Positions 36,499-54,858 of a stretch of DNA of 64,000 bases are shown here, in pieces. This DNA comes from an uncultured delta proteobacterium (GTDB lineage Bacteria; Desulfobacterota; Desulfobacteria; Desulfobacterales; Desulfatirhabdiaceae). The position numbers and the translations under genes are program-made. Within the stretch, counting starts at the first letter, position 1; each line of letters opens with the position of its first letter. Below the pieces are notes generated by a model. It saw nothing but the letters and a program-made list of their open reading frames with translations, ran no database searches and was not told where the DNA came from. Location: NCBI GenBank assembly GCA_963789395.1, contig CAWBKP010000010.1:7351-71350 (forward strand), given 5' to 3'.

Positions 36499-36545
36499 CG
36501 ATATTGTCGGGAAGTTTCGCGGTTAACCTTATAAAAAGAGCAAGC

Positions 36546-37667
36546 ATGGCCGTCATCGAGATCATTACCGTGGAAAGCAGATCGGATCTTAAGGCCTTTA
36601 TCGATCTGCCCTGGAAAATATATGCGGAATACCCCAATTGGATCCCTCCCCTTAAGAAGGAAATTCGCCGGCTGCTGGATCCCGGCAAACACCCTTTCTG
36701 GGAGTTTTCCGAGCGCATCCTCTTTCTGGCCCGACGGGGTTCGGAAACGGTGGGAAGGATCGCGGGCATCATCGACCGCAATCATAACGCGTTTCACAGC
36801 GAACAGATGGGCATTTGGGGATTCTTCGAATGTGCCGACGATCCGGAAGTCGCGTCGGCCCTCTTCTCTTCCGCAGAGACGTGGGCGCGCCAAAAGGGGA
36901 TGTCCTTCATCAGAGGCCCGCTCAACCCTTCCACCAATTACGAGTTGGGGCTTCTCATCGAGGGTTTCAATTACCCGCCCGCCATCATGATGGCCTACAA
37001 TCCGCCGTACTATCCGGGGTTGGTCGAATCGTGCGGTTTCGTCAAAGAAAAGGATCTGCTGGCCTTTCTGATTGATGGCGATTACCGGCTCCCCGAATGG
37101 ATGGATCACCTTGCCGAATGGATCGCCAAAAAAGGCGGTATCCAAATCAGGCGGTCTCGTCCAAAGGATGCGGATGCCGAGTTTGCCCTGATCAGGGAGA
37201 TATACAATGCCTCCTGGTCCGGCAATTGGGGGTTTGTCCCCTTAAGCGATCATGAGATGCGGGACATTCAAAAGAATGTGATGGCATTTGTGGATCCGGA
37301 TATGGTTTTCTTCATTTATTATGGAGATGAACCCGCAGCATTCTGTGTTATCTTTCCAGACATCAACCCGTTGCTCAAACGTCTCAATGGGCGGATCGGC
37401 CTGCTGGGCTTGCTGAAGTTCCTGCTATATCGGCGGGAGATCAACGGATTGCGGCTGTTGATGTTTGGCGTCAAGGAGAAGTACCAGCAATTGGGACTCC
37501 CCATGCTGGCCTTTCACCACATATATGAGGTTGTGAGGAAGAAAGAAAAATATCGCTCCCTGGAGCTGGGCTGGACCCTTGAGGACAATGCATCGATCAA
37601 CTCTTTGATAGAGGAAGCCGGCGCAAAAATATACAAAAAATATCGCATATTCAGAAAGTCTTTATGA
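36546..37667 (+). CDS. GNAT-like N-acyltransferase (about 370 aa, two-lobed)
   Basis: Start at MAVIEIITVES. The blocks GRIAGIIDRNHNAFH..., WGFFECADD and the C-terminal LLMFGVKEKYQQLGLPMLAF (QxxGxP/A-like acyl-CoA loop) resemble large GNAT-fold acyltransferases. Assigned from memory, moderate confidence. Confidence 0.5.
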   Translation: MAVIEIITVESRSDLKAFIDLPWKIYAEYPNWIPPLKKEIRRLLDPGKHPFWEFSERILFLARRGSETVGRIAGIIDRNHNAFHSEQMGIWGFFECADDPEVASALFSSAETWARQKGMSFIRGPLNPSTNYELGLLIEGFNYPPAIMMAYNPPYYPGLVESCGFVKEKDLLAFLIDGDYRLPEWMDHLAEWIAKKGGIQIRRSRPKDADAEFALIREIYNASWSGNWGFVPLSDHEMRDIQKNVMAFVDPDMVFFIYYGDEPAAFCVIFPDINPLLKRLNGRIGLLGLLKFLLYRREINGLRLLMFGVKEKYQQLGLPMLAFHHIYEVVRKKEKYRSLELGWTLEDNASINSLIEEAGAKIYKKYRIFRKSL

Positions 37668-38644: not shown

Positions 38645-41281
38645 ATGTCGGCTGAACATCGCGCTCCAATCATCGCTTTCGTTTGGCGGCCCGAGGAGAT
38701 GACCCCGCCTGTAATCCAAATGGCGCATCAAACAGGGAGCAGGGCCATCTTCGATTTTTCCATGATGGGGGTGGATGCGCTGCGATCTTCCCTGCAAAAA
38801 GCCGGCCCCGACGGCCAGATCAGGGATATCAAGATTTCAGCTGCTGCATTTATGGAACCGTCTTTGGGACAGATATTACCCAATACAGGCGTCCAAAACC
38901 TTTGGATCGAATGTCACCCGCAGTTTTTCCAGGGAGATCCTTCCACGTTTCTACAGAGATTGAGGGAATTGCCGCAAAATTACCGCCTCTTCCCGATTTT
39001 CGGGGACCTGAATCTCCTGACGACTATTTTGACAGATGGCCCGGAAATCGGGCGCATCGTCCTGAAAGGAAGCGAGGCATCCGGATTCGTAAGCAGTGAG
39101 ACGACCCTGACGCTTTATTCAGCGGTCAAGGAAATGCTGCGACGCCGATCGAAGTTTTTGGACATCCTCATCTGGGGAAGTGTTTTCACTCCTGAGGCGG
39201 CTGCGGCATTTTTGTCCACCGGAGCCACGGGGATCGTCTTCGAGAGCCTCCATTGGCTGACAGACCTGGTTGCTGTTGATGATCTCCAACGCCGGCGGCT
39301 CTCCAACCTCCGCCTGGATTCAACCGATCTGGTCGGACTGGACCTGCAGGTTCCCTGTCGCATTTTCAACAAGGGAAACTCGATCGCGTTCAAGGAGATC
39401 AAAAGTTTCGAAAACGCGCTGTGCGGAGCAAGGATCACGGAGGAAAGCCGCCGATCCTTCGAGAACCGAGTGAGTATTGGGACCCGCCACCCTCTGGAGA
39501 GTGCTTTCACCCCGGGCGAGACCATCCCTCTGGGTGTGGAGGCAGCCTTTGCCGCATCCTTTGCCGAGCGTTTTGGAACGGAAACCGAGGAAGCCGTGAA
39601 GTCCTTCATGAACGAGATTCACAGCTCATGCCGCCAGGCTGTTATAAAAAATGACTGCTTTTTGAACAGCCCCGTCGCCGCAGAGATGGGATCCAAATAC
39701 CCTTTTATCCAGGGAGCCATGACCTGGATCACCGATGTCCCTGAGTTTGCCTCACGGGTTGCCGAGGCCGGCGGGTTGCCCACAATCGCCCTGGGCATGA
39801 TGGACGCCGAAACCCTTGATCGGAAGCTGGGACACCTGCCGGAGATCATGGGCGGGCGCTCTTATGCCGTGAATATCGTCTCTCTGGCGGAGAACCCTTT
39901 CAGGGAGACCCAACTGGCATGGATAAAGAAACACCGGCCCCGTTTTGTGGTGATCGCGGGAGGGGATCTCTCCTTTTTAAGGGATTTGTTGGCATGCGGA
40001 CTGGAGATCATGTATATCGCCCCGAACGAGGCATTGTTGCGACTCGCTCTTGAAGCCGGCGCCCGGTATGTGATCTGCGAGGGATATGAGGCCGGCGGGC
40101 ACGTTGGCCGCCATAGCACGCTTACCCTTGCTCAAATGGTACTGGATCTGAAACGAATCAAACCATCCCTGTTCCAGAATTGCCGCATGATTCTTGCCGG
40201 GGGAATTTTCAACCGGGAAACCGCATTCATGGCAGCCATGCTCGGAGCAGATGCCATCCAGATGGGCACCGCATATCTGGCCACCCGTGAAATCATTGAA
40301 ACGGGAGCCCTGACGGCGCTCTATCAGCGGATGGTCCTGGAATCACCTCCTGGCGGAACGGTCGTTTCAGGCAGGGACACCGGACTTCGGGTGCGCTCCT
40401 TGAAGTCCCCGAGAACAGCCGCAGTTTCATCCCTGGAGCGGGAATTTGCAGCGGATCACCCAGACGAGAGTTCCTTCCGCACGAAAATAGAAGAGATGAC
40501 GGCGGGAAGCCTCTTCACCGCGGCCCGCGGCATGGAAAGACCCGGCGGGGCGCCTCTGGATGAGCGGACCTGCCTGGAACGCGGACAATTCATGAGCGGG
40601 GCCAGTGCCGGCCTTATCAGCAATGTCCTGAATCTGCCGTCCTTCCATCGCGAGTTGGCTGAAGGCCATCTTTTGCTGCATCAGCCCGGGGGTTCCACCG
40701 AGAGAATGCCGGAACCTTCACCCGGCGCTTCGCGCCCCATGAAACCCCCATCCAGCGGGATTGTCCAGGGACTGATGAAACCGGCGCTGCATAAAGACGC
40801 CCATGAAAGGGTTGCCATCACCGGGATGAGTATTCTCAATACCCTGGGGGATAGTCCGGAAGGGGTCTGGGCGGCAAGCCTGGCCTTGAAGAGCGGGATT
40901 ACCCTGGTTCCGTCTTCCCGGTGGGATCACACTCTTTTTTATGATCCCCGCCCGTTTGCTCCGGACAAGACTTACTGCAGGGTGGGCGCCTTCCTGGACG
41001 TTCATATCTCCCGAGGCGAACTCGGAATTTCCCCGCATGATTTCCGAACCATGACCGATGCCACAAAGCTCACCCTGTGGCTGGCGGACAAGGCCATCCG
41101 GGAGTCCGGCATCCTGGAGTCGAACATCCCACGGGAGCGAATCGCAGTCCTTGTCTCCCAGAACTCCGGAGAAGCGGCGGCAACCTTCACCGATCTTAAT
41201 CATAAGGGCGCATGTTCACGACATCCTGGCCGATATCAATCGGGTGCTTCACCTCAGTCCGGATCAGATGCGCGCCGCTGA
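38645..41281 (+). CDS. megasynthase part 1: two PfaD/nitronate-monooxygenase-like enoyl reductase domains plus the start of the KS
   Basis: The second ER domain is clear (YPFIQGAMTWITDVPEFASRVAEAGGLPTIALGMM ... CEGYEAGGHVG ... MGTAYLATRE). The first roughly 330 aa form a degenerate copy of the same fold. The KS begins at RVAITGMSILNTLGDSPEGVW. The true reading passes into ORF 41058-45983 at about 41197. Confidence 0.8.
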   Translation: MSAEHRAPIIAFVWRPEEMTPPVIQMAHQTGSRAIFDFSMMGVDALRSSLQKAGPDGQIRDIKISAAAFMEPSLGQILPNTGVQNLWIECHPQFFQGDPSTFLQRLRELPQNYRLFPIFGDLNLLTTILTDGPEIGRIVLKGSEASGFVSSETTLTLYSAVKEMLRRRSKFLDILIWGSVFTPEAAAAFLSTGATGIVFESLHWLTDLVAVDDLQRRRLSNLRLDSTDLVGLDLQVPCRIFNKGNSIAFKEIKSFENALCGARITEESRRSFENRVSIGTRHPLESAFTPGETIPLGVEAAFAASFAERFGTETEEAVKSFMNEIHSSCRQAVIKNDCFLNSPVAAEMGSKYPFIQGAMTWITDVPEFASRVAEAGGLPTIALGMMDAETLDRKLGHLPEIMGGRSYAVNIVSLAENPFRETQLAWIKKHRPRFVVIAGGDLSFLRDLLACGLEIMYIAPNEALLRLALEAGARYVICEGYEAGGHVGRHSTLTLAQMVLDLKRIKPSLFQNCRMILAGGIFNRETAFMAAMLGADAIQMGTAYLATREIIETGALTALYQRMVLESPPGGTVVSGRDTGLRVRSLKSPRTAAVSSLEREFAADHPDESSFRTKIEEMTAGSLFTAARGMERPGGAPLDERTCLERGQFMSGASAGLISNVLNLPSFHRELAEGHLLLHQPGGSTERMPEPSPGASRPMKPPSSGIVQGLMKPALHKDAHERVAITGMSILNTLGDSPEGVWAASLALKSGITLVPSSRWDHTLFYDPRPFAPDKTYCRVGAFLDVHISRGELGISPHDFRTMTDATKLTLWLADKAIRESGILESNIPRERIAVLVSQNSGEAAATFTDLNHKGACSRHPGRYQSGASPQSGSDARR

Positions 41282-44200
41282 ACGCGAGGTGAAATCCGGA
41301 CGCCTGGCCCCGGACGATACCACACTCCTGGGCAGGCTCAACTGCGCGGCGGCCGGCTTTATCTGCAACCGGTATGGGTTCATGGGACCCAGCCATTCCG
41401 TCTCCGCAGCCTGCGCAACCTCACTGGTCGCACTTCACAGCGCCATCCAGATGATCCGGACCGGCATCATCGATGCAGCCATCGTCGGAGGGGGCGAGGA
41501 GTATCTCAGTCGAATGCATTTTCTGGAATTCTCCGCCCTGGGCGCCCTTTTCGGGTTGTCCGGGCAGGAAAGGCCCGCTCATGAAACCTCCCGCCCCTTC
41601 GACGCCGAAAGAGACGGAATGGTACTGGGCGAAGGCGGGGGAATGATCATTATCGAGCGGGAAAGCTCGGCCCTGCACAGAGGGGCGCATATCCACGCCG
41701 TCATCACGGGCATGGGCGCCAGCAACAACCATCTGGGCATGGTAGAATCCTCCAGTGTCACCCAGGAGATCGCCATCCGCGCCTCTTTCCAGGGGACACC
41801 CTATGGACCCGATGCGGTGGACCTGGTGGAATGCCATGCCACGAGCACCCGGCAAGGGGACGTGGAGGAGGTCCGTGCCCTGAAGGCGATTTTTCATTCT
41901 TCCAATCGCACAGTCATTACCTCATTCAAATCCCAGATCGGACACACACTGGGCGCCTCGGGCATCAACAGCCTCATTCGCGGCGTCATGGCCATGAAGG
42001 CGGGGGTTTTCCCTCCCACCCTCAATTATACGCATCCAGACCCGGAAATCGGCCTGGAAGGATCGGGACTCTTCATTACCCCCGAGCCGCTTGACTGGAA
42101 GTGCAGGGCCGGCCGGTTAAGAAGGCTCCAGGTTAATGCTTTCGGGTTTGGAGGTTCCAACTACGTGGTGCAGTTGGAACAGTCCATGGATGAAGCGGCC
42201 ACGATCCTTGTCTCCCCCGAAGGTGAGCCTTCTGAGCTTCAGGGGATCTCTTTCTTCCGGACCCAGATGGACGGCCGTCACTACCGGACGGCCGTCGTGG
42301 CGGAATCCGAAGAAGCGGCGCTCACTGTCTTTGAGAGATCGCGCCACCTCCTTTCAAAAGACGGAATCGCCACTCCCAGGGCATTGAGATCCCTGGCACA
42401 TCAGGGAATCTTCATGGGCGCTGAGGATCTGCCGGTGCTGCCGCTCGCGTTGGTATTTCCCGGACAGGGCACCCACTATGCAGGAATGGGGCGGGATCTC
42501 TACGAGTCCTTTTCCGTCATCAAGGGGTGGATGGATCGGGCTGCGGCGGCCGCGGACTTTGACCTTCTTCATCTCTTGTTCCATGACCGCGAAGAGAACC
42601 TTCAAATGACCCGGTGGCAGCAACCGGCCCTGTTCGTTCTGGAATACGCCATGGCGAAATTCCTCCTCTCACTTGGCATCCGCCCGGTGGCGATGGCCGG
42701 CCACAGTTTGGGCGAACTGACCGCCCTGTGCCTGTCCGGCGTCTATTCCCTTGAGGACGGATTCCGAATTGTGAATAAGCGGGCGCTCTGTATGGACAAG
42801 GCCGCCGCCATGCACGTGGATCCGGGTGTCATGGCGGCCACGGACGCCCCCCTGGAATTGCTGAAAGAGATGGTCCGGGAACGGGACGATGTCCATATCT
42901 GCAATATCAATTCACCGAAACAGGTCGTTCTGGGTGGCAACACCGAGGCGGTCAAATATCTGGGTATCAGACTGAAAGAGAAGGGATTCCGCTCAACCCT
43001 TTTACGGGTCAGCATGGCCTTCCACTCTCCTATCATGAGAGTCATTCATGACGAACTCGAAGCGTTTATTGCCACCATCCCGTTTCATTCCCCGCAGATT
43101 CCCGTCATCTCCAACACGACCATGGCGCCGTATCCATCCGATCCAGGAGAGATCCGGCGCATTCTGATGACTCACCTGGAATCTCCCGTCCACTGGATGC
43201 ATAACGTTCAGACGCTTTGGAACGACTACGGCGTCCGACTCTTCATGGAGGTCGGTCCAGGCGACATATTGAGCAATCTCATCGCAGACACGCTCTCTGG
43301 CGCAACATGCATCCAAACTTGCCTTCCCCGGGAAGAGAGTTTGACCTGCAGGACAGCTCTTGCCCAGCTTTTCGTGCAAGGACATCTGATGGGACAAAGG
43401 GAAATCAGCCCGGCATACCCGGAAGCCTCACCGGCATCAGATATCCAATCCATGACAGGCGGCCCCTTGCCCCCCGAAAACCGGATGGAACCCCCCGACA
43501 CTACGAAGACTCCTTCTCCAGACAATGCGCCTGAGAACCCGGATCACATGGAGCGTCTTATACGAATCATCATGGAGGCTACGGGTTTCGAAAGAAGCGA
43601 GATCCAACCCGATATGGATCTGAGGAAAGACCTTTCCATCCGCTCCAGCCGCCTTCCGATCATCATGGACGCTGCGGAACACCAATTCGGAATCACTATC
43701 GAATTGCAGGATTTTATCCATGTCCGCACCGTGAAGGACATCGCGCAGAAGATCTCCGAGATAATCGCCAGGCAGGAAGGCTCCGGACCACTTCCGGCCA
43801 CCCGGGCTGTTGACCCCGGCATGGTGCGGGATGAAATCCTGAAACCCTCTGCGAATGCGGTGAGCCTGAAGCGACTCGTATTCAGTTATGTCCCTGTCGA
43901 TCCACCAGCTTCCATTCCCATACATTTTGAGCCGGACCAGTCAGTTCTCGTTCTCTCACCGGACCGGGAGGACAGCATTGCAGCAAGCGTCGCAGACATC
44001 TTCCGCCGGGATTGCGGAATTGACTTATTTCCCCTGTCGTTCATGCAATGGAGCTCCGGTCCAGTCGAAACAGGCCACGACATCAGAACCGCCGAAGGGG
44101 GCCATGAGCTTGCCGATCGGATTGCGGGTTTGACGTCTGCGGTTGGGATGGTTATCTCCTTGCATCAACTGGCGGAAAATTTAAAACGCATGGAGGATAT

Positions 44201-45983
44201 TGCACAGATTCTCAGAGGCTTCTTTATCCTCCTGAAAACATTTCTCCAGACACCGGACAGGAAACTCGTCATGCTGATCCACTCTCGGGAGGATACCGAA
44301 ACACCGGTTCGGCTCCTGGCGGAGGGGATGACGGGACTTTTTCTGAGCGCAGCGCTGGAACACCCGGCGGTCCTGTTTCGCACACTGGAAATCGACCACG
44401 ACACCGACATTCGCATTGCCTTACGTGATGCTTTGGACAGTGGATACAAGATAGTGGAGATGGTGCATCGCAATGGGAGGGTTTTCACCTCCGAGGGACA
44501 TGTCGCTCCGTCGCTCTTCAGGGATGTATCAAGCCTGGAACTGAGTCCAGGAGACGTTGTCGTCATGTCCGGAGGCGCAACGGGAATCAGCTCCCATCTG
44601 GCCCGCAGTTTTGTTCCCTTTAAGCCCCGCCTGGTCTTTCTGGGAAGAACGACTCTCGATCCAGGCATGCATGTAACTCCCCGCACCATGCATCCGACTT
44701 CAACGCCTTTTGTTCTCGAAGACAGGGCTTTGGAGATTACCCGGACCCTGGCTGATTTGCACGCCTCAGGGATCGAGGCATCCTACCATACCTGCGATGT
44801 CGCTGATCCCGAGGCGGTCCGTGCCGTCATGGACGAGTTGGCAAATCGTTATGGCAAGATCCGGGGGATCATCCATGGTGCAGGCGTCCTCAGGGACGGA
44901 TTCCTCAACCAACTGACTCCGGATGATTTTTCCATTGTCACGGACATCAAATTCCTCGGTGCATGGAATTTATTCCTGGCTGCCGAGAAGGCCGGCTTGA
45001 GGTTTTTCGTGGGCCTTTCTTCGGTGGCCGCGATCCAGGGGAATCCCGGCCAAACCAACTACGCGGCCGCCAACCGGATGATGTCCGCGTTGATCAGAAC
45101 CCTCCGGCGGAAGAATGGCGCCATCCGGTTCAAGGCATTAATGCTTCCCCCAATCGAGGGGGCGGGCATGGCCGAGGACCCGGATATTCGGGAACTGATG
45201 CGGCTGAAGGGCGCGTCGTACATTCATGTAGATGAGCTTGCAGGGCTTTTCTGCCGGGAGCTTTTCGCATCCCCGGCCGACGATAATTGGGTCATGTTCA
45301 TGCGGACGCTGCCCTCCGTAAAGACGGCAAGGCTAAATGACAGGACCGGTCCTTTGCCCAATGGAGTACTGGATGGAGGCTTCGCGGCTTTAAGCCCCGA
45401 GGGCTTTCCCATGATAGAGGGGATCTCCGGCCTGGACATCCGCCGGGAACAACTCGAAGCCTTCAGGTCCTTCTCCCGGGAGAAGGATCTTTGGATTGAG
45501 GATCACAGACCCTTGACGTTTATCAAGCATCCCCTGGTTTCAGCCGCCATGTTTCTGGAGACATTCATGGAAGCCGCCCGGATCCTGTATCCTTATTTGC
45601 AGGTGTGCGGAGCCCGCCAGGTGCGGTTCCTGGACATGATCCAATGTCCTCCCGGGATAGTGCGGTCCATCCATCATCTCCTGCCGCCGGGTGGGGAGCC
45701 ACCTTCCGGAGGTATTGTGCGAGGTTTCTCTGGCGACACAGGCGCTCTCCCCCACAGGAAAATTGGCAGACCGCTTCACCCCCCACTGCAAGGGTCAGGT
45801 CATTCTGGGCGGCGGGGAAGGCTTTCTGGGAGAGGGTTTCCTGGATTTTCCCGTCCGGGCCGACGAACTGACTACGGATCCCATGAATCAAAAAAATATG
45901 CTGAAATGGTACAAGAAACATTCCGGCCTCAAAGGCAGGTATCGCGTATTGGAAAGTCCTTGACGGCGCCGGTCCGAAAGTGA
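41058..45983 (+). CDS. megasynthase part 2: KS-AT-ACP-KR-DH(N-terminal part) of a type I PKS/FAS-like enzyme
   Basis: KS (SVSAACATSLVALHSA, VECHATST, SQIGHTLGASG), AT (FPGQGTHY, AGHSLGE), ACP (MDLRKDLSIRSSRL), KR (VMSGGATGISSH ... QTNYAAANRMM), and the DH hot-dog start (LWIEDHRPLTFIKHPLVSAAMFLE). Only residues from about 41197 onward are real. The last roughly 100 aa of the listed ORF are out of frame. Confidence 0.85.
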   Translation: MPQSSPCGWRTRPSGSPASWSRTSHGSESQSLSPRTPEKRRQPSPILIIRAHVHDILADINRVLHLSPDQMRAAEREVKSGRLAPDDTTLLGRLNCAAAGFICNRYGFMGPSHSVSAACATSLVALHSAIQMIRTGIIDAAIVGGGEEYLSRMHFLEFSALGALFGLSGQERPAHETSRPFDAERDGMVLGEGGGMIIIERESSALHRGAHIHAVITGMGASNNHLGMVESSSVTQEIAIRASFQGTPYGPDAVDLVECHATSTRQGDVEEVRALKAIFHSSNRTVITSFKSQIGHTLGASGINSLIRGVMAMKAGVFPPTLNYTHPDPEIGLEGSGLFITPEPLDWKCRAGRLRRLQVNAFGFGGSNYVVQLEQSMDEAATILVSPEGEPSELQGISFFRTQMDGRHYRTAVVAESEEAALTVFERSRHLLSKDGIATPRALRSLAHQGIFMGAEDLPVLPLALVFPGQGTHYAGMGRDLYESFSVIKGWMDRAAAAADFDLLHLLFHDREENLQMTRWQQPALFVLEYAMAKFLLSLGIRPVAMAGHSLGELTALCLSGVYSLEDGFRIVNKRALCMDKAAAMHVDPGVMAATDAPLELLKEMVRERDDVHICNINSPKQVVLGGNTEAVKYLGIRLKEKGFRSTLLRVSMAFHSPIMRVIHDELEAFIATIPFHSPQIPVISNTTMAPYPSDPGEIRRILMTHLESPVHWMHNVQTLWNDYGVRLFMEVGPGDILSNLIADTLSGATCIQTCLPREESLTCRTALAQLFVQGHLMGQREISPAYPEASPASDIQSMTGGPLPPENRMEPPDTTKTPSPDNAPENPDHMERLIRIIMEATGFERSEIQPDMDLRKDLSIRSSRLPIIMDAAEHQFGITIELQDFIHVRTVKDIAQKISEIIARQEGSGPLPATRAVDPGMVRDEILKPSANAVSLKRLVFSYVPVDPPASIPIHFEPDQSVLVLSPDREDSIAASVADIFRRDCGIDLFPLSFMQWSSGPVETGHDIRTAEGGHELADRIAGLTSAVGMVISLHQLAENLKRMEDIAQILRGFFILLKTFLQTPDRKLVMLIHSREDTETPVRLLAEGMTGLFLSAALEHPAVLFRTLEIDHDTDIRIALRDALDSGYKIVEMVHRNGRVFTSEGHVAPSLFRDVSSLELSPGDVVVMSGGATGISSHLARSFVPFKPRLVFLGRTTLDPGMHVTPRTMHPTSTPFVLEDRALEITRTLADLHASGIEASYHTCDVADPEAVRAVMDELANRYGKIRGIIHGAGVLRDGFLNQLTPDDFSIVTDIKFLGAWNLFLAAEKAGLRFFVGLSSVAAIQGNPGQTNYAAANRMMSALIRTLRRKNGAIRFKALMLPPIEGAGMAEDPDIRELMRLKGASYIHVDELAGLFCRELFASPADDNWVMFMRTLPSVKTARLNDRTGPLPNGVLDGGFAALSPEGFPMIEGISGLDIRREQLEAFRSFSREKDLWIEDHRPLTFIKHPLVSAAMFLETFMEAARILYPYLQVCGARQVRFLDMIQCPPGIVRSIHHLLPPGGEPPSGGIVRGFSGDTGALPHRKIGRPLHPPLQGSGHSGRRGRLSGRGFPGFSRPGRRTDYGSHESKKYAEMVQETFRPQRQVSRIGKSLTAPVRK

Positions 45984-46317
45984 TGCGCGGACAAAGCGTC
46001 TGCCGGCAGACAGGTGATTTTAAAAATCTGCGGAACGTTCATTATCAATACTCTCCCTATCTTTTAGAAGCCATTTTGCAATTGGCCGGCCTCCACTGCA
46101 TTGTCATGAATATAACGGAGAAACGATCCATGATTCCCATGGAGATCGGGGAGATGCGCTTTTCCCGAAAATGCCGGGCGGGGGAACAGATCACCCTGGA
46201 GGCCCGCATGCGGGCGCAGAATGCGCAAAGTCAGCTTGGGACGCCCGAGGACTTGATGATCAAGGCCGCACCATCATGCAGGTTTCCAATTTGGTGATGC
46301 ACTGGATTTCAGGCTGA
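45691..46317 (+). CDS. megasynthase part 3: remainder of the DH domain, spread over three frames
   Basis: ORF 45691-45963 reads ...LCEVSLATQALSPTGKLADRFTPHCKGQVILGGGEG ... KWYKKHSGLKGRYRVLES. ORF 45980-46297 reads ...HYQYSPYLLEAILQLAGLHCIVMN ... IGEMRFSRKCRAGEQITLEARMRAQ. A final frame gives WDARGLDDQGRTIMQVSNLVMHWISG*, ending at 46317. The frameshifts are near 45670, 45955 and 46225. Confidence 0.65.
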
Positions 46318-46335
46318 GTCGTCATGGATAGGGGG

Positions 46336-46430: not shown

Positions 46431-47162
46431 GTGGATATGGGGAAGGATTGCCAGGGCATTACCGTCCATGCAGTGAGTTTTGATCATCGCGGGGGACCCG
46501 CATTCTATGCATCCTTGCCGGGTGATGGTGAAAACCACAAAGGGTGCCGGTCGAACGGGGAAGAAGACAAGAATCGCCTGGTCTCCTTTCTGTTGGATCA
46601 CGTTACGGGGATGGATAGTCCTCTTGGGAAATGCCGGCTTTCGTTCGATAGCGATCCTTTTCCCATTCACGTGGTCCGCGACCCGCTCGGCAGGCCGCAT
46701 CTCCTGTTGGGAGAACATCGGGGTCCGGCCATCTCCTTCAGCGAGGGTGGCGGGAAAATCTGGGCCGCGCTTTGCGGGGATGCATCCGATATCGGCATCG
46801 ATGTAGCAACGGCCGATGAATTTCAGGGAGGATACCCCTGTCACCGGGTCTTTCATGACCGGGAGATCCAATATGCCTTAAGGTTGACGGGGGGAGACAT
46901 GGAAAAGGCTTCAGCCCTGCTCTGGTCCATCAAGGAAGCGGTTGTCAAGGCCCTGGGATGCGCATTCCATCTTGTGGCGCCCCGGCAAGTTCACATCTAT
47001 CCTTCGACAGGGGGGGACGGGGGATATACTTTCCCCGTGTGCTTATCGAGGAAGGCCCTGGCACGGTCTCCCACGAGCACAGGCTGTTTCATATGGGTGC
47101 GTTCGTTTCCCCAGGCGAAGATGTGGCTTTCCATTGCCCTCTTGAGCTGGCAGCCACGTTGA
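46431..47162 (+). CDS. 4'-phosphopantetheinyl transferase (Sfp-type)
   Basis: Motifs DPLGRPHLLL, ISFSEGGG, DIGIDVATADEF and WSIKEAVVKALG (the PPTase W/F-x-x-K-E-A-x-x-K signature). Confidence 0.8.
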   Translation: MDMGKDCQGITVHAVSFDHRGGPAFYASLPGDGENHKGCRSNGEEDKNRLVSFLLDHVTGMDSPLGKCRLSFDSDPFPIHVVRDPLGRPHLLLGEHRGPAISFSEGGGKIWAALCGDASDIGIDVATADEFQGGYPCHRVFHDREIQYALRLTGGDMEKASALLWSIKEAVVKALGCAFHLVAPRQVHIYPSTGGDGGYTFPVCLSRKALARSPTSTGCFIWVRSFPQAKMWLSIALLSWQPR

Positions 47163-47215: not shown

Positions 47216-48168
47216 ATGATGAAAGAAACTGAATACGCCATCGAAGTCGAAAAACTGACGAAGCGTTATGGGGATTTGCAGGCAGTTAACGACATCTCGT
47301 TCAACGTCCGGAAAGGCGAGGTTTTCGCCTTGTTGGGCCCGAACGGAGCCGGCAAGACCACCACTGTCGAGATCATCGACACCATCCGCACGCCCACGTC
47401 GGGAAACGTTCGCCTTCTGGGAATGGACGTCACAAAGAAGAAGCGCGACATCGTCCCCCGCATCGGCGTCCTCCCGCAGGGGTTCAACTCGTTCGATAGG
47501 ATAACCGTCAGGGAAACCGTGCAGTACTACTCGCGGCTTTTCTGTTGCAGGAACGTCAATATCGACGGGCTGATAGCGCTTGTGAATCTCAATGAAAAGG
47601 CCAAAGAGCAATACATGAATCTCTCCGGTGGATTGAGACAGCGCCTCGGGATCGCAATTGCGCTCGTGAACGACCCCGAGGTCGTGTTTCTAGACGAGCC
47701 GACGACAGGACTCGACCCCCGCGCCAGGCGCGAGGTATGGGACGTCCTGCTGGGCCTGAAGCAGGCTGGAAAGACGGTATTTCTCACCACGCACTACATG
47801 GAGGAAGCTGAGCTTCTTGCGGACACTGTAGCAATTATCTCCAAGGGGAAGATCATCGCCATGGACTCTCCCGTGCAGCTCATCGAAAGCAACGCGGATT
47901 ACCTGGTCCTCACGCTGCAGTCTGTGGATGAAAAAACTTTTGAAGTCGTAGGGAAGATGGGCTTCGCGCCGGAACTTACCAACACAAAAGCCTCAATGTG
48001 AAGGTGGCGGGCACGGACGACATCCGGAAGATACTGAACGCCATGGAAGACTCCGGGGCCGCGTTGCTCAGCATGGACGTTCGCAAGCCCAACCTCGAAC
48101 AGGTCTTCCTGAATCTTACCGGCGAGGCGCTCCACGAAGGCGCTTCCGTGGGAAAGGGGGTGAAATGA
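47216..48168 (+). CDS. ABC transporter ATP-binding protein (ABC-2 exporter type), one frameshift
   Basis: Walker A GPNGAGKTT, signature LSGGLRQR, Walker B VVFLDEPTTGLD. ORF 47216-48001 stops prematurely. One extra A in the A-run 47986-47989 restores ...TNTKSLNVKVAGTDDIRKILNAMEDSGAALLSMDVRKPNLEQVFLNLTG..., ending at 48168. Confidence 0.85.
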
Positions 48169-49279
48169 ACCTGCGCGTTGTTGTCGCAAGCCTCGTCGTG
48201 AGCCTCAAGAGCTTCTACCGCGAGAAGACCACGATGTTCTTCACAACTACCTTCCCGATACTCCTGATACTCGTGTTCGGCACGATTTTCCAGGACCAGG
48301 ACAAATTGAATTTCGACCTTTGCCTGCAGGACCTCGACCAGACAGAAACCACGGCGGAAATCGCAAAGACCCTGTCCCTTACCGGGAAGTTCAACGTCAC
48401 CAAGGTCGATCCTACCATCGATGCCGCACATTACGCCAAGACCAACCAGATAAACCTTGTTGTCATCATTCCCAAAGACTATGAAAAATCTTGTATGCAA
48501 TATCTGCAATCCGGCGATCCCGATGCATTCGTTACCATCCAGTTTGTCTACGATCCCAGCTCCAATCGGTGGATACGAAGATGCGAATTCTGGACATTAT
48601 ATTCGCCAAGCTGAACCAGGGGATGTCCGGAAAGCCGCCGTTCGTCAAGACGGAAGAAATATCGATTCTCACCAGGAAATACCGGTTCATCGAGTTCTTT
48701 ATCCCCGGCGTCATCGCAATGGCGGTGATGACCGCAAGCCTGTTCGGAACTGTGAACGTGAACACGGAGCTGCGGCAGAAGGGCATCATCCGGAAACTGT
48801 CCACCACGCCCATCACCCGCTCGGACTGGATACTGTCTAACATTCTATACCAGTTCATACTTGCGGTCATATCCACCACGGCAATGCTTATAGTGAGCTA
48901 CGCCGTGTTTGACGTCAAATTGCAGATAAACGCCTGGCTCCCGCTGTTCATCGTGCTTGACGTTTTTACGTTCGTTGGTATCGGGTTGATACTCACCCGC
49001 ATCGTGAAGGAGGCGCAGAGCGCCGCCGCCGCAGCCAACGCCCTCATATTCCCGATGATGTTCCTCTCGGGGAGCTTCTTCCCGCTCGAGATGATGCCGC
49101 GCTTCTTGCAGACGTTCGCCAGGGCCCTGCCTCTGTACTATGTGAACGAGGGTCTTCGGGCATCCATGGTGTTTCACGACAACGCCGCCGCACTGAATTA
49201 TGCCGCGATAATCGGAGCCTTCGCGTCACTGGTCTTCGTTCTGGGTCTCATCGCCACCAAATGGGAAGAGGGTAATTGA
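48165..49279 (+). CDS. ABC-2 type transporter permease, one frameshift
   Basis: ORFs 48165-48614 and 48491-49279 join if CC at 48562-48563 is read as CCC (...VYDPSSQSVDTKMRILDIIFAKLNQ...). The C-terminal half has the ABC-2 membrane domain (FFIPGVIAMAVMTASLFG ... FPMMFLSGSFFPLEMMP). The ATG overlaps the ATPase stop. Confidence 0.8.
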
Positions 49280-51039
49280 CAGCCAAACATCCCTTTCGCG
49301 CCATCACGCAAGCACCCCATGCCCGTGTCATTACCGCCTTGCTTGCAGCAACGCTCGCTGTCCTTATCGATTTCATTTTCAGATTCAGCAATTACCGGGA
49401 TCTACTGCATCTGCTCCCGGACGCCGGAGCCATGAAGTTTTCGGGCGCACTCACGCTGGTATTTCTCCAGGTGATCGCTCTCTTTTATCTCATGCTTCTT
49501 CTTCCCAGGCTTCTCCGTGCGGTCGTCTTCCTGTTTTTTGTTTTTGTCCTGGTCGTCCAATTCTCCTACTGGCTGACACTTAACCAGTTCATGACAAGCA
49601 CCGACCTGTTTCTCGCCCTGAATGTCAGCGCCGACAATTTCGAAGGCGCCATTTCAAGCTTCCTCAAGCCGCTTATCTTCTGGTATGCGCTTCCCTACGC
49701 ACTCGTACTATCCACACTGATTTTCGTCCCAGTCAGATCCACATTCCGAAAGTCCCTCGCGCTCAGCCTCCTGCCCGCATTCTACCTGCTCTTTTCCAAT
49801 TCCGCCCTCTTTCTTTACGCGGCTGAAGGCAATTTCCATCTGAATCCCCTGACCTCCCTCCTCCGTACAGCACTTCATTACGAATTTGAAACCCTCCGAG
49901 AATATCAGGGCCCCCGGGAAGACCTGCCGGTATTTCCTGCCTCCCAACGGCCACATAACAGCATCATCTATATCATCGATGAATCCATTCGAGGCAGCAA
50001 TCTCAGTCTGAACGGCTACCCGCGGGCCACCACACCGTTTCTTCAATCTTTAGAGACCCAGGGACGCCTCAAGAATCTCGGCATTTGCGTTGCTGCCGGC
50101 ACCTATTCCTACCTCAGCAATGCTTATCTGGTTACCGGCCACAACGCATTTCCCGACGACACTTTTCGAACATTCAAGAACCCGACCCTCTTTGATTACG
50201 CTAAAAAAATGGGTTACGAAACGATCTATATCGATGTCGACAGTGGCTATCTTTCCAAGCTTCTGGAAACCGCCCGGGAGGGTCACGTGAGATCCCTGGA
50301 CCGGTGGATGACCGATCAATCGTTCAGGGATCGCCATATCGATCTTGAAACCACGAAAGACCCGGGCGTCGCACGCTTTCTGAGTAGTCTTCTGAACGAA
50401 AGAGGCGGTTATTTCATTCTCGTCAACAAGAAGGGCCTTCATTTCCACTATCGCAATACCTACCCGGATGATCCGGCCTTTACGTTTTGGGAGCCGGTTA
50501 TGGAAACATCGGAACCCATCGACCCCAGCCCGACCGGCCGCGAAAAGCTCGTTAATACCTATGACAACGGGATTCGCTTTCAGGTGGATGAATTCTTCCG
50601 GGAGTTCGTGTCCGATACAACGAATCAGAATTATGTCATCCTTTACACTTCGGACCATGGCCAGACGTTGGCCGAGCATGGGCAGGTGTATACCCATGTA
50701 AAGTCTGACAAGGTGATCGTCGACGTACCGGCGTTTCTCGTAGTCGGTGAGCGATATGACAAGAAGGGTTCCTTAGCCGGCATTCGCCCCGGCATCCGGG
50801 TTTCCCATCTGAACAATTTCGCGACCATCCTCGATCTGATGGACGTACCGTTGTCTTTGCGGGTTCGTCCCTACGACAAATCGATTTTTTCTTTGACGTC
50901 CGAGGACAACAGCGAGCGCTACTATATGAGCGGTTCTCTTCATGGCTCCGGCGATTACGTGGTGAAGATGATACCGACACCACCGGATGAGGGATGGGGC
51001 GTTTCGAGACTTCTCGGCAAGGTCCTCAAGTCTGAATGA
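49276..51039 (+). CDS. membrane-anchored sulfatase-family transferase (phosphoethanolamine/phosphoglycerol transferase-like)
   Basis: Five or six N-terminal TM helices, then an alkaline-phosphatase-superfamily domain (IIYIIDESIRGSNLSLNGYPRATTPFL ... ILYTSDHGQTLAEHGQ). The TTG start overlaps the permease stop. Confidence 0.7.
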   Translation: MTAKHPFRAITQAPHARVITALLAATLAVLIDFIFRFSNYRDLLHLLPDAGAMKFSGALTLVFLQVIALFYLMLLLPRLLRAVVFLFFVFVLVVQFSYWLTLNQFMTSTDLFLALNVSADNFEGAISSFLKPLIFWYALPYALVLSTLIFVPVRSTFRKSLALSLLPAFYLLFSNSALFLYAAEGNFHLNPLTSLLRTALHYEFETLREYQGPREDLPVFPASQRPHNSIIYIIDESIRGSNLSLNGYPRATTPFLQSLETQGRLKNLGICVAAGTYSYLSNAYLVTGHNAFPDDTFRTFKNPTLFDYAKKMGYETIYIDVDSGYLSKLLETAREGHVRSLDRWMTDQSFRDRHIDLETTKDPGVARFLSSLLNERGGYFILVNKKGLHFHYRNTYPDDPAFTFWEPVMETSEPIDPSPTGREKLVNTYDNGIRFQVDEFFREFVSDTTNQNYVILYTSDHGQTLAEHGQVYTHVKSDKVIVDVPAFLVVGERYDKKGSLAGIRPGIRVSHLNNFATILDLMDVPLSLRVRPYDKSIFSLTSEDNSERYYMSGSLHGSGDYVVKMIPTPPDEGWGVSRLLGKVLKSE

Positions 51040-51075: not shown

Positions 51076-54000
51076 TTATTTTTCAATCCGTTGCAGGGCT
51101 TCCAGTTCCGAGGCGACGACATCCAGAGCAAAGCGGATCTGATCGGGTGTATGGGTGCAATTGACAAAAAAGCGCAGACGGGCGGAGTTATCAGGGACGG
51201 CCGGATAGACCATGGGCAGGGCATCGATCCCTTGCCGGAGGATGGATTGTGAGAGTCTTAGCGCCTTCAAGGAATCTCCGACGATGACTGGAATAACCGG
51301 GGAAAAGCTGCTGCTGGCGCCGGTATTCAGACCCCTTTCCCGGGCGAGCATGAGAAAAAACCCGGAGAGCTCATGGAGGCGCATCACCCGTTGGGGCTCC
51401 TTCCTGAGCAAACGAATGGCGGCCAGTGCTGCTGCGACATTCGACGGAGGCATTCCCACACTGTAGACAAAGCCCGGCGCGGTGTATTTCAGGTATTCAA
51501 CAAGGGCTCCGGATCCGGCGATATAGCCTCCGCAGCTGGCAAATGACTTGCTCAATGTGCCCATCCAAAGTTCGACTTCGGCGGGAGCGATTCCAAAGTG
51601 CTCACCAATACCCCTGCCTCTTTTCCCCAATACGCCGATGGAATGCGCCTCGTCCACCATCAGAAAGGCTCCGTGCCGTTTCTTGATCTTTATAAATTCA
51701 GGAAGTTCCGGGATATCGCCATCCATGCTGTAAAGGGCTTCGATAACCACGAGGGCCCGTCGGAAACGGGGTCGCAACTCCTTGAGAATCATGTCCAGGG
51801 CTTGCCAGTTGTTGTGGGGAAAAGAAAGGTATGTTGCCTGGGAAAGCTGGCATCCCTGGAGAACACTGTTATGAATCAGGGCGTCATGAACAATGAGATC
51901 GGACTTGCCGAAGAGATGGCCGATTGTAGTCACGTTCGTGGCATGTCCGCTGACAAAAACGAGGCTGTCCTCTGTGCCGATCAAGTCAGCAATTTCTTTC
52001 TCAATCTCACGATGCAGGGGCCTTTCGCCTGAAACCAGACGGCTTGCCGAAACCGAAGTCCCATAGCGGTCGATAGCATCTTTGGCGGCTTGAGATACGA
52101 CCGGATCTCCGGACATACCCAGGTAATTGTACCTGGAAAAGGTGATGAACGCCCGGCCTTTTGCAGTTGCGTCTTTTGAATCGGTCTCTTCGTGCACCCT
52201 GAAGTAAGGGTTGTCGATACCCCGCGCCTTCATCCCCTGCATGATCTGTTGCAGGTTACGGTATTCGGGGTAATCCACAAACGGCAGGCACTCCGGTTGA
52301 ATCTCACGGACCTCTCTCTGGTCAACACCCCTTTCTGCCGGCTCTCCGGACTGACGGTCGGATGATAGCACTTTTCCCAAAGGTCCGTCTTTGGCTTCAA
52401 GCCCTCTTCCCAAAGTCCTTTGCCAGAGAACGTGAGCCGTCAGATCGGAAATGCCGGCTCCCAGAAAGAGCGCTTCGACGGGAAATTCGATTCCCATGTC
52501 TTCTTCAATCGTCGTCTTCAGCTCTGCTGCCATCAAAGAATCGATGCCAAGCGTATTCAAGGGACTGTGCACATCTATCCTGGTGAACGAGATTTTGAGG
52601 AGATCCGCCACTTTTTTAGCAATGCGAGCCTCAATGACCCGGTTGAGCCAGGAAACGGCTTCCGCACCCATGTCCTCAGATTCCAAATCGCCGACTTTGA
52701 GCGTTGAAGCATCCAGACCGATCGAAACCGATGCGTCGTTCCCCAGATGGACGGGTCGGCATTCTTCCAATGCCTGGAGGGTTATCTCCGGATCGATTTT
52801 TTGGGAATACCCGACGCACTGGGCAACGGCCCTCAAACTGCCCTGGATAAAATGCTCCCGACAAAGGCGGCGCTGGATCTTTCCACTGGTCGTCTTGGGA
52901 AGACCGGCGGTCTTGAGCAGCACAACTGCGTAAGCGTGGATTTCATGCTCTCGTGACACACTTTGGCGAATGGCCCCGATCACCGCCTCTGCATCCAGCT
53001 TTTTGATGTATCGTCGCTCGATTTCTTGCACCACCACCAGTCGTTCCTCATCCCCGACTTCAACGGAAAACGCCGCCCCGCAGCCTGGTCGCAGGGCCTC
53101 ATGGCTTCTTTCCACGGTCCTCTCGATGTCTTGAGGATAATGATTGAGGCCCCGTATGATGATAAGATCCTTCCAACGGCCCGTGACAAAGAGCTGGCCG
53201 TCATGGATAAACCCGAGGTCTCCCGTGCGCAGATAAAGACCTTTACCACCATCGGCAAGCCTTGCCCGGAAGACGTGATCCGAATCTTCAGGACGATGCC
53301 AATATCCTTGTGCAACGCTTGGCCCTGCGATCCATATTTCTCCAATCGTATCGATTTTGCAGGGGGTCTGCTTCTCCGGATCGACGATAACAATCTCATT
53401 GCCAGGCGGTGCTCCCCCATTTGCTACCAGCTCGAAGTCATGCTCCCGATCTTCTGCAGAAAGGACCAAACGACCGGATTGTAACGACTGCGCGTCCACC
53501 TTCAGGAATGTCGGTGCGGCGCTTTTGCTGCCTCCAGAAGCGATAAGGGTGTTTTCCGCAAGGCCATAACAGGGCAGAAATGCTTTTTGCCGAAAGCCGC
53601 AGGACTCGAAAGCCGCAGCAAAACGGCGGAGCGTCTCCCCCCTGACCGGCTCGGCACCGTTGAAAGCAACCTCCCAACTGCTCAGATCAAGTCCTGATTT
53701 CTGCTCCGGCGTGATCTTTCGAACACAAAGATCGTAAGCAAAATTCGGTCCACCACTTGTCGTGGCCCTATAGCGTGAGATGGCCATCAGCCAGCGAAGC
53801 GGTTTTTGGATGAAGTGAACAGGTGACATCAAGATCATATCGGCGCCAGCATAAACAGGCTGAACGATCCCTCCGATCAATCCCATATCGTGGTATGGGG
53901 GAAGCCAGAATATGCCGCGGTTACTCGATGAATACCCAAAGACTTCATGGATAACGGATGAATTATGGAGCAGGTTCCCATGGCTGACCATTACGCCCTT

Positions 54001-54582
54001 GGGATTTCCGGTGGAACCGGATGTGTATTGGAGAACAGCAAGGGAATCAGCACCCAGGGAAGGTTCTTTCCAGACATTTGCCAGATCGTCGGAAATGGTG
54101 TCGGTTAATATCCATTTGAGAGCAGCCAACCCGGGAGTCTTATTAATTTGGTGTCTATATGCTTCCAGGGTAGAAGCCGTAGTGAGTGCAATTGTGGGTT
54201 CAGCGTCGGCTACTGTTGCTACAAGGTTTGCCAAAAACTGGTTGGAATGGGGGGGATAGGCCGGCACGGCGACCAAGCCCGCACACAAGCACCCGAAGAA
54301 TGCCGTGGGAAACTCGATGCCTGGAGGGTAGAGCAAAAGGATCCTCTCTCCCGGAGAGAGGTGAGATTGGAGATGCGCCGCAATGGCGAGTGCCCTGCGT
54401 TCCAGTTCACAATATGTCAGTCTGGTTTCTTGTGATTCTCCATCCTTGAGATAGGTGTAGAGGGTTTTTTCTCCCTGCTCTTGAACCCTCCGGCGCAGCA
54501 GGTGGATCAGATTCGGCAGCCTATTCGTGCAGATTGTTGAGCTCGGTCCGGGCTGATTACCACGGCTCATATAGTCTTTCAT
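51076..54582 (-). CDS. tri-domain fatty acyl-AMP ligase - ACP - alpha-oxoamine synthase (serine palmitoyltransferase/AONS-like, PLP-dependent)
   Basis: 1168 aa, intact. FAAL/adenylation domain (LQYTSGSTGNPKGVMVSHGNLL, YLRTGDLGF, PKTTSGKIQR), ACP (LNTLGIDSLMAAEL), and class II aminotransferase/AOS domain (YNYLGMSGDP, HATNVTTIGHL, DEAHSIGVLG, GTLSKSFASCGGY with the PLP lysine). Confidence 0.9.
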   Translation of the reverse strand: MKDYMSRGNQPGPSSTICTNRLPNLIHLLRRRVQEQGEKTLYTYLKDGESQETRLTYCELERRALAIAAHLQSHLSPGERILLLYPPGIEFPTAFFGCLCAGLVAVPAYPPHSNQFLANLVATVADAEPTIALTTASTLEAYRHQINKTPGLAALKWILTDTISDDLANVWKEPSLGADSLAVLQYTSGSTGNPKGVMVSHGNLLHNSSVIHEVFGYSSSNRGIFWLPPYHDMGLIGGIVQPVYAGADMILMSPVHFIQKPLRWLMAISRYRATTSGGPNFAYDLCVRKITPEQKSGLDLSSWEVAFNGAEPVRGETLRRFAAAFESCGFRQKAFLPCYGLAENTLIASGGSKSAAPTFLKVDAQSLQSGRLVLSAEDREHDFELVANGGAPPGNEIVIVDPEKQTPCKIDTIGEIWIAGPSVAQGYWHRPEDSDHVFRARLADGGKGLYLRTGDLGFIHDGQLFVTGRWKDLIIIRGLNHYPQDIERTVERSHEALRPGCGAAFSVEVGDEERLVVVQEIERRYIKKLDAEAVIGAIRQSVSREHEIHAYAVVLLKTAGLPKTTSGKIQRRLCREHFIQGSLRAVAQCVGYSQKIDPEITLQALEECRPVHLGNDASVSIGLDASTLKVGDLESEDMGAEAVSWLNRVIEARIAKKVADLLKISFTRIDVHSPLNTLGIDSLMAAELKTTIEEDMGIEFPVEALFLGAGISDLTAHVLWQRTLGRGLEAKDGPLGKVLSSDRQSGEPAERGVDQREVREIQPECLPFVDYPEYRNLQQIMQGMKARGIDNPYFRVHEETDSKDATAKGRAFITFSRYNYLGMSGDPVVSQAAKDAIDRYGTSVSASRLVSGERPLHREIEKEIADLIGTEDSLVFVSGHATNVTTIGHLFGKSDLIVHDALIHNSVLQGCQLSQATYLSFPHNNWQALDMILKELRPRFRRALVVIEALYSMDGDIPELPEFIKIKKRHGAFLMVDEAHSIGVLGKRGRGIGEHFGIAPAEVELWMGTLSKSFASCGGYIAGSGALVEYLKYTAPGFVYSVGMPPSNVAAALAAIRLLRKEPQRVMRLHELSGFFLMLARERGLNTGASSSFSPVIPVIVGDSLKALRLSQSILRQGIDALPMVYPAVPDNSARLRFFVNCTHTPDQIRFALDVVASELEALQRIEK

Positions 54583-54858
54583 ACTGTTGTTTATTTCTTC
54601 CTGTTGGTTCGAAGATCCCCGTGGTCATCAACGGCAGCCCCGCATTCTTCTCAAAGATCAATGCGCAATCGTGAATTACGAAGGAATGAGATACCATCAT
54701 TGATATTAAATTTTCTCAAAGTATACGGAATTTGTCAACCATGGTTCTTCGAAAAGAACGCTTTATATCCTTCAATTTAAAGGACCTATGACGATCACGT
54801 TCTTGTTGGCGTCTGAAGCGCGGTCCATGCCGGTTTGGAGTTTGCGTGCAGAAACGTT

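Follow-up and report, generated by a model that had tools for sequence, protein, structure and literature searches.

In Caulobacter, a four-gene operon with the order ACS-SDR-ACP-Spt has been described (PMC10411912, PMC9386255), and bCerS, a gene of the GNAT type, lies a few kilobases away from it (PMC11087976). Padilla-Gomez et al. reported that AasR acylates only the acyl carrier protein (ACP) AcpR, not CoA, and that the serine palmitoyltransferase (SPT) Spt prefers acyl-AcpR (PMC9386255). In Pseudomonas fluorescens MYb115, the SgaA/SgaB/SgaC system makes sphinganines with an iterative polyketide synthase (PKS) and an alpha-oxoamine synthase (AOS) that has SPT activity (PMC12134224). Domain order A-CP-PLP2, in which the last domain is an AOS, was listed by Milano et al. 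in 2013 for Microscilla A1ZVW4, Blastopirellula A3ZWL3 and Synechococcus PCC 7002 B1XHP8 (PMC3870968). Here we analysed a stretch of 64,000 nucleotides from an uncultured delta proteobacterium of the Desulfatirhabdiaceae (Desulfobacterota), which we call the window, and in it a gene for a single protein with fatty acyl-AMP ligase (FAAL), ACP and AOS domains. This fusion is probably a one-polypeptide long-chain-base synthase, that is, a natural AasR-AcpR-Spt fusion in a cluster of the ceramide type, and it most likely catalyses the first step towards a sphingolipid-like membrane lipid in a lineage of anaerobic sulfate reducers.

The original prediction, drawn from the letters of the window, had described an intact FAAL-ACP-oxoamine synthase fusion of 1168 residues, and the reading frame, Pfam, solved relatives and AlphaFold2 domains all bore this out. 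The open reading frame (ORF; 51076-54582, minus strand) runs through 1168 codons from ATG to stop with zero internal stops. Pfam placed an AMP-binding domain at residues 30-428 (1.6e-66), a FAAL/DIP2-type C-terminal domain (PF23024) at 472-587 (2.5e-12), a PP-binding domain (PF00550) at 653-718 (7.8e-12) and Aminotran_1_2 at 813-1154 (1.1e-40). An AlphaFold2 model built on an alignment of 32 homologues (mean pLDDT 70, pTM 0.45) showed three folded domains, at residues 21-592, 641-724 and 780-1168, with disordered linkers at 593-642 and 742-780; the ACP domain was modelled as a four-helix bundle, with helices at 641-662, 682-696 and 711-724. Structure prediction had been suggested as a check of the original reading, and a Foldseek search with this model returned FAALs for the first domain and SPT structures for the last. 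The AOS domain matched SPT structures with TM scores of 0.85-0.88 at an rmsd of about 3 Å (S. multivorum SPT: TM 0.88, rmsd 2.9 Å).

Over the N-terminal 590 residues, the closest solved structure was the Synechococcus olefin-synthase FAAL 7r7e-g (613 bits, 48% identity), followed by Legionella 3kxw and FadD32. The ANL core motifs YTSGSTGNPKG, FNGAEP, YLRTGDLGF, GRWKDLIIIRGLNHYPQDIE and PKTTSGKIQR were conserved across 24 family members, and FAAL motifs A3, A5, A7 and A8 were kept across the family together with the A10 lysine, so that P-loop, TGD, hinge and A10 lysine were all present. A FAAL-specific insertion of about 30 residues follows YGLAE; it is absent from E. coli FadD and common to AasR-like proteins. 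From this insertion and the behaviour of AasR (PMC9386255), we infer that the FAAL domain would load holo-ACP and reject CoA. In the ACP domain, G679, D681 and S682 were invariant in 32 family members, the serine sitting in a DSL motif. For the C-terminal 400 residues, the best solved relatives were Sphingobacterium multivorum SPT (245 bits) and then plant LCB2a (221 bits), and H904, D977, H980, K1012, R1135 and R1137, which cover the Schiff-base lysine, the pyridoxal phosphate (PLP)-stacking His, the Asp/His pair and the C-terminal Arg positions, were invariant in 32 sequences. The motifs, the invariant residues and the homology to AasR, AcpR and Spt fit the earlier proposal of a CoA-independent route, in which a fatty acid would be activated as acyl-AMP, passed to the ACP of the same chain and joined to an amino acid by condensation.

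As a reference for genuine ceramide loci, we used matches to NCBIfam NF047603 (785-835 bits, where the cut-off is 670) and Spt-like genes from 301 Pseudomonadota genomes, and compared the 20 kb around six spt or Spt-like genes with the cluster proteins of the window by tblastn. Homologues of three parts of the window cluster were found beside proteobacterial spt: of the FAAL domain (32-34% identity over about 550 residues, E 1e-63 to 1e-68), of the short-chain dehydrogenase/reductase (SDR; 28-31% over about 325 residues, E 1e-31 to 1e-42, inside ACS-SDR-ACP-spt operons) and of the GNAT-like protein (33-36% over about 385 residues, end to end, E 1e-61 to 1e-69, and 7e-72 pairwise). One locus (L122) carries ACS (579 aa), SDR (315 aa), ACP (111 aa) and Spt (406 aa), in the same order as the Caulobacter operon. 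Because the FAAL, SDR and GNAT-like relatives adjoin spt and this locus matches the Caulobacter operon, the window has a homologue for each of the five ceramide genes of Caulobacter, with three joined in one chain as AasR-AcpR-Spt. Genes have been classed as 'Spt-like' by co-location with bCerS and CerR homologues (PMC11334938); in the window, the GNAT-like gene (36489-37667) and the SDR gene (35518-36498) are both homologous to neighbours of genuine spt.

In its predicted order of activities, from acyl-AMP to a dedicated ACP to a PLP enzyme, the window resembles the AasR/AcpR/Spt system with CerR and bCerS of Caulobacter crescentus, E. coli B and Sphingomonas (PMC9386255, PMC11087976). Each domain has a homologous stand-alone counterpart beside proteobacterial spt, and CerR- and bCerS-type genes are clustered in the window. 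The window differs in having a single polypeptide, in the order AasR-AcpR-Spt, whose AOS domain belongs to a clade separate from classical bacterial Spt and sister to eukaryotic LCB2; its cluster adds an iterative PKS, a phosphopantetheinyl transferase (PPTase), a radical SAM protein, an EptA-like protein and an ABC-2 exporter, and the host is an anaerobic member of the Desulfobacterota. The Sga cluster is similar by gene type, with an iterative type I PKS, an AOS and an SDR together, and its products are sphingoid bases (PMC12134224); SgaB, however, is a stand-alone AOS without FAAL-ACP, and the Sga SDR is of the eukaryote-like KDSR type. The proteins of Milano et al. have the same domain order as the window protein and were modelled on S. 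multivorum SPT (PMC3870968), but their product was listed as unknown and no link to ceramide genes was drawn; the window protein falls in the Blastopirellula-like (planctomycete/Desulfobacterota) clade.

We placed the AOS domain in trees with S. multivorum SPT, the LCB2 proteins of plant, human and yeast, the T. thermophilus AOS (ThAOS), KBL of Coxiella and E. coli, E. coli BioF, proteobacterial Spt and ALAS as references, a small taxon sampling that held no CqsA or LqsA sequence. The fusion clade was monophyletic (100/99-100). When the long E. coli BioF branch was omitted, classical Spt, LCB2 and the fusion clade formed one super-clade (99/98), apart from KBL, ThAOS and ALAS, whereas trees retaining E. 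coli BioF placed the fusion AOS outside the Spt groups. Within the super-clade, the fusion clade was sister to eukaryotic LCB2/SPTLC2 (96-98/93-95) rather than to alphaproteobacterial Spt. In the approximately unbiased test, a grouping of LCB2 with proteobacterial Spt was marginally rejected (p = 0.033), whereas one of LCB2 with all classical Spt was retained (p = 0.10). The fusion AOS and LCB2 also have in common the motifs TKSF/SKSF-xSCGGY, GxATN and ARxRF. Because the tree sampling is small, we treat this apparent sister relationship as a lead.

The closest non-fused relatives (60-67% identity) were ACP-AOS didomain proteins and stand-alone AOS proteins of the cyanobacteria Moorena, Trichodesmium, Okeania, Nostoc and Chroococcidiopsis. 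Their FAAL is presumably encoded separately, which would make them a split form of the fusion system; cyanobacteria are a phylum without established sphingolipid genes, yet hold these forms. FAAL-ACP-AOS proteins of Limnothrix (L018) and of a Bacteroidetes metagenome-assembled genome (MAG; L021), 39% identical, have AOS domains of the classical bacterial Spt clade, with the motifs NNYLG and GTF[SA]KS. Because these two domains group with classical Spt, the FAAL-ACP-AOS fusion probably arose independently, at least twice.

The architecture is widespread. At least 8000 scored proteins in a collection of 5.8 billion have the order FAAL-ACP-AOS, their identity to the window protein is 75-99% for metagenome genomes of Desulfobacterota and about 50% for Pirellulales and other groups, and full-length fusions lie on contigs of Pyrinomonadaceae, Rokubacteria, cultured Nostoc minutum NIES-26 and cultured Legionella resiliens. 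Public annotations call proteins of this type '8-amino-7-oxononanoate synthase'. The original prediction had named an assembly chimera among the findings that would overturn it; some 8000 proteins of the same architecture, those of the cultured Nostoc and Legionella isolates included, led us to reject a chimeric origin. The fusion gene is under selection, with a ratio of nonsynonymous to synonymous substitution rates (dN/dS) of about 0.2 against three orthologues. Its nearest named proteins point to a host in the Desulfatirhabdiaceae. Within the genus of the window, the gene is patchy, occurring in 3 of the 16 genomes searched (G000, which is counted among the 16, G010, and G008, where it lies in three pieces). 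A further genome of the genus (G004, locus L089) is without the fusion; its GNAT-like gene is 80% identical, and its AOS, a stand-alone protein of 399 residues, falls with S. multivorum SPT. The genus thus seems to hold two alternative starts to the same pathway, by fusion or by stand-alone AOS.

The fusion gene lies tail-to-tail with a plus-strand cluster that spans 33255-51039 (Table 1), and this neighbourhood recurs in related genomes. Every Desulfobacterota locus that we examined has PKS, PPTase and ABC-2 genes next to the fusion, with the PKS linked in 8 of 8, and those that extend far enough also have the genes for the radical SAM protein, the SDR and the GNAT-like protein. Outside this phylum, Pirellulales, Rokubacteria and Legionella have a GNAT-like gene within about 10 kb of the fusion, in loci where the PKS is absent; four of five further fusion-bearing genomes have the GNAT-like gene elsewhere in the genome. 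No PKS lies near the fusion in Planctomycetota, Pyrinomonadaceae, Nostoc or Legionella. In one Desulfobacterota locus (L106), where the GNAT-like gene again lies near the fusion, it overlaps the PKS gene by 11 nt.

Table 1. Features of the fusion gene and its cluster, as positions in the window (L numbers are comparison loci)
Feature	Position	Strand	Basis and remarks
FAAL-ACP-AOS fusion gene	51076..54582	minus	1168 aa, intact; ORF call, Pfam domains, dN/dS
FAAL domain (aa 21-592)	52807..54522	minus	48% identity to 7r7e-g; motifs A3, A5, A7, A8, A10 kept
ACP domain (aa 641-724)	52411..52662	minus	Phosphopantetheine serine S682 in LGIDSL, codon 52537-52539
Alpha-oxoamine synthase / SPT-like domain (aa 780-1168)	51079..52245	minus	PLP lysine K1012, codon 51547-51549
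Sigma-70-like promoter match	54710..54738	minus	TTGACA-17-GAAAAT with TG, about 125 nt 5' of the fusion ATG; consensus scan only
Glycosyl/glycerophosphotransferase-like protein	33255..34298	plus	Weak family matches; 73%-identical copy in Rokubacteria L011
Radical SAM/SPASM protein	34451..35395	plus	Beside the fusion also in L093, L094
Extended SDR (epimerase / 3-beta-HSD type), CerR homologue, candidate 3-keto reductase	35518..36498	plus	Nearest named families HpnA, OleD
GNAT-superfamily acyl-CoA N-acyltransferase, bCerS homologue	36489..37667	plus	Homology to GNAT genes near proteobacterial spt
Iterative PKS, x-ER(NMO)-KS-AT-ACP-KR-DH, no thioesterase (TE), no loading domain	38645..46314	plus	Domain scan; four frames from 1-bp indels
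Sfp-type 4'-phosphopantetheinyl transferase (PPTase)	46431..47162	plus	PF01648 2.1e-10; directly after the PKS in relatives too
ABC-2 exporter	47216..49279	plus	ATPase 47216-48001; permease 48165-49279 split by indel; beside the fusion in L091-L093, L011
EptA-like phosphoethanolamine-transferase family membrane protein	49276..51039	plus	Sulfatase family 2.3e-20; NF028537 1.4e-23, far below cut-off; convergent with the fusion

The GNAT-like gene probably starts at the Met at 36546, which gives 373 residues as in its relatives. Between it and the PKS lies an ORF of 259 residues (37799-38578) with no family match; at the matching place, one Desulfobacterota locus (L105) has a gene of 285 residues with no recorded Pfam family, and L106 has none. 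In a Rokubacteria MAG (L011, 2100-9900), the fusion stands beside a compact divergent operon with a GNAT-like gene, an SDR, a glycosyltransferase-like gene (73% identical to 33255-34298), a stand-alone KS, ABC-2 genes (71%) and a KR-like SDR; this high identity across phyla suggests that part of the cluster moved recently by horizontal transfer. In L105 and L106, genes of the AsmA/YhdP family lie directly upstream of the GNAT-PKS pair, with PLA1, PLD-type, PAP2 and MGDG-synthase-like genes nearby, an envelope-lipid neighbourhood that fits an outer-membrane destination of the product.

The pathway that we propose draws on domain content, conserved catalytic residues, homology to proteobacterial ceramide genes and conserved linkage, which were observed; from these we infer all the activities, which amino acid is used, how long the chains are, in what order the steps from N-acylation to export follow and what the PKS does. 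The Sfp-type PPTase of the cluster would first convert the ACP to its holo form at S682. The FAAL domain would then adenylate a free long-chain fatty acid and load it in cis onto the phosphopantetheine arm, not onto CoA. A dimer of the AOS domain, with K1012 as the Schiff-base lysine, would condense the acyl-S-ACP with an amino acid, likeliest L-serine, to release CO2 and a 3-keto long-chain base. This base would be N-acylated by the GNAT-type bCerS homologue, with an acyl chain that may come from the TE-less iterative PKS, and its 3-keto group would be reduced by the CerR-like SDR. Addition of a head group may fall to the EptA-like and the glycosyltransferase-like enzyme, and the ABC-2 transporter would export the lipid towards the outer membrane.

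Several points weigh against this reading. For all members of the fusion family, the assignment of function rests on sequence, and the CerR- and bCerS-type assignments rest on 28-36% identity together with gene neighbourhood. The AOS domain scored below every NCBIfam equivalog cut-off for SPT (322 against 640 for NF047600, 282 against 500 for NF047599 and 237 against 670 for NF047603), and its top hidden Markov model (HMM) score was to bioF (TIGR00858; 352 against a cut-off of 426). Comparison of the AOS active site with S. multivorum SPT structures (PMC10196870) revealed no residue that separates serine from alanine or glycine. In the upper euxinic Black Sea, the dominant compounds are 1-deoxyceramides, which are not derived from serine and have been attributed to Desulfobacterota and/or Bacteroidota (PMC11334938). 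Finally, the PKS reads as broken in the window assembly.

RedL, from undecylprodigiosin biosynthesis, has the architecture A-ACP-KS-AT-ACP-OAS and uses glycine to build a pyrroline. Like the window protein, it unites in one chain a domain that adenylates fatty acids, a carrier and, at the end, an oxoamine synthase. It differs in its use of glycine and in its internal KS-AT-ACP extension module; the window fusion has no internal KS. By analogy with RedL and SgaAB, the cluster could work as a split line, in which FAAL-ACP primes the PKS and the AOS off-loads the elongated chain as a very-long-chain, polyketide-derived sphingoid base. The PKS (ER-KS-AT-ACP-KR-DH) lacks both a loading domain and a TE, so its chain must be handed over to something, and its linkage to the fusion in every Desulfobacterota locus would agree with such a line, as would the C24-C28 sphinganines made by the iterative PKS SgaA and the AOS SgaB (PMC12134224). 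However, the fusion must be self-sufficient in the Planctomycetota, Pyrinomonadaceae, Nostoc and Legionella genomes that have no PKS near it, and the gene order couples the PKS to the GNAT-like gene, which is better matched by N-acyl supply. We consider a split line rather unlikely, though the SgaAB precedent keeps it in contention; the tight coupling of PKS and GNAT-like genes, with their 11-nt overlap in L106, favours a PKS that supplies the N-acyl chain.

The second alternative leaves the architecture and the pathway as they are and changes the amino acid: an AOS that uses L-alanine or glycine would give a 1-deoxy long-chain base and then 1-deoxyceramides. Besides the Black Sea lipids, this would agree with the top score of the AOS domain to the model of bioF, an alanine-using enzyme, and with the Asn that follows the PLP-stacking His (HNS) where characterised bacterial Spt has HAS. 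Against it, the AOS falls in the SPT super-clade as sister to serine-using LCB2, the characterised relatives SgaB (PMC12134224) and S. multivorum SPT (PMC10196870) strongly prefer serine, and an EptA-like head-group transferase would use as its acceptor the C1 hydroxyl that a serine-derived base offers. We judge alanine or glycine to be unlikely and L-serine to be the likeliest predicted substrate. The original prediction had stated that the amino acid, and with it the head of the long-chain base, could not be read from the sequence; this holds for the active site, where no discriminating residue emerged. The context allows a step beyond it: the bCerS-, CerR-, PKS- and EptA-like genes of the cluster and the place of the AOS in the SPT super-clade point to a ceramide-type lipid.

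Two further roles for an AOS of this kind fared much worse. One is an enzyme like CqsA or LqsA, whose product would be a signal, an alpha-hydroxyketone or amino-ketone, and not a membrane lipid. In its favour, the AOS weakly matched PRK07179, an autoinducer-synthase model (150 bits, where the cut-off is 428), and Legionella has a member of the fusion family. Genes for N-acylation, reduction, head-group addition and export nevertheless point to a structural lipid, and the AOS grouped with SPT and LCB2 in trees that held no CqsA or LqsA, so that we regard a signal synthase as very improbable. Least credible of all is a biotin-pathway enzyme that makes 8-amino-7-oxononanoate from pimelate and alanine in the manner of a BioW-BioF fusion: natural BioWF fusions exist (PMC9544090), bioF is the top NCBIfam AOS model and the fusion is the sole AOS-family gene in its genome, but we rejected this role because no bioB, bioD or bioA was found above cut-off in the 94%-complete genome and the bioF score stays below the TIGR00858 cut-off, and against it also stand the patchy occurrence of the fusion in the genus, an activating domain that is a long-chain FAAL rather than BioW, and the lipid genes of the cluster.

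The ceramide-type reading and the LCB2 lead can be joined in a more far-reaching proposal. The bacterial clade of the fusion, by which we mean FAAL-ACP-AOS proteins of Desulfobacterota, Planctomycetota, Acidobacteriota and Legionella together with the cyanobacterial split FAAL plus ACP-AOS and stand-alone forms, would be the closest prokaryotic relative of LCB2/SPTLC2; eukaryotic sphingolipid synthesis would go back to that lineage instead of alphaproteobacterial Spt, as has been proposed; and the Desulfobacterota fusion with its iterative PKS would make a polyketide-acylated outer-membrane ceramide. We put this forward tentatively and think it doubtful as it stands.

In contrast to the fusion gene, several of its neighbours are broken. 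As the original prediction had noticed, many long genes of the window carry frameshifts. Four 1-bp indels, at about 41195, 45668, 45957 and 46233, split the PKS (38645-46314) into four frames. All of them are private to the window assembly: the intact frame is the one on which three relatives agree, and genome G010 (locus L103) has the orthologue as a single ORF of 2557 residues. The ABC-2 permease, zwf and glgP are broken as well, with 48566 and 59760 among the indel sites. Against a 97.4%-identical relative (L091), we counted 40 indel events in 23 kb, and that relative has private breaks of its own elsewhere, in the PKS, the EptA-like gene and gnd. Because housekeeping genes break at different places in two near-identical genomes, the frameshifts of the neighbours look like long-read assembly errors, and from this private pattern it follows that gene calls in the source genome need a frameshift-tolerant reading. 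An AT-rich segment at 55977-56209, covering the head of a listed AAA+ ATPase ORF (54859-56142) and the sequence just upstream, holds 13 of the 40 events and is either hypervariable or hard to basecall.

The fusion gene itself had 0 indels against L091. However, no other gene of the region is so little diverged (1.06% mismatches, as compared with 1.6-5% in its neighbours), and when indels were scaled to mismatches, about 1.6 were expected in it, so that the probability of seeing none was about 0.2. Because a gap-free alignment is this probable once the low divergence is counted, the intactness of the fusion carries little information. The emphasis on the intact frame, taken as a sign of selection, is not supported: with private 1-bp indels in the neighbours and few expected in the fusion gene, we rejected intactness as a mark of special selection.

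In the literature searched, we found no paper that characterises the fusion or ties it to ceramide genes. A search for FAAL plus AONS returned nothing, a 2025 FAAL review and a 2021 eLife paper on FAALs do not mention oxoamine/PLP fusions, and no pfa-like cluster linked to an AOS figures in Shulse and Allen (2011). A paper on a Nostoc punctiforme 'Spt' was set aside, its subject being a stand-alone BioF-like gene. Already known are the architecture, listed in 2013, the split system, characterised in 2021-22, and the PKS route, described in 2025. New in the window are the full ceramide gene set with a PKS in a Desulfobacterota genome and the lead to LCB2.

Sphingolipids are turning up in many anaerobic bacteria and sediments, and their genes have mostly been inferred from stand-alone Spt. 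The one-chain AasR-AcpR-Spt form occurs widely: its database members number thousands and come from Desulfobacterota, Planctomycetota, Acidobacteriota and cyanobacteria, and screens that demand near-full-length coverage of a 400-residue Spt may overlook or mislabel it. A single gene with its PPTase would also be a convenient system for the study of amino-acid and chain-length specificity, and the apparent sister relationship to LCB2 bears on the origin of the eukaryotic enzyme. If active, the fusion would channel free fatty acids to long-chain bases without CoA and would tie sphingolipid synthesis in Desulfobacterota to an iterative PKS.

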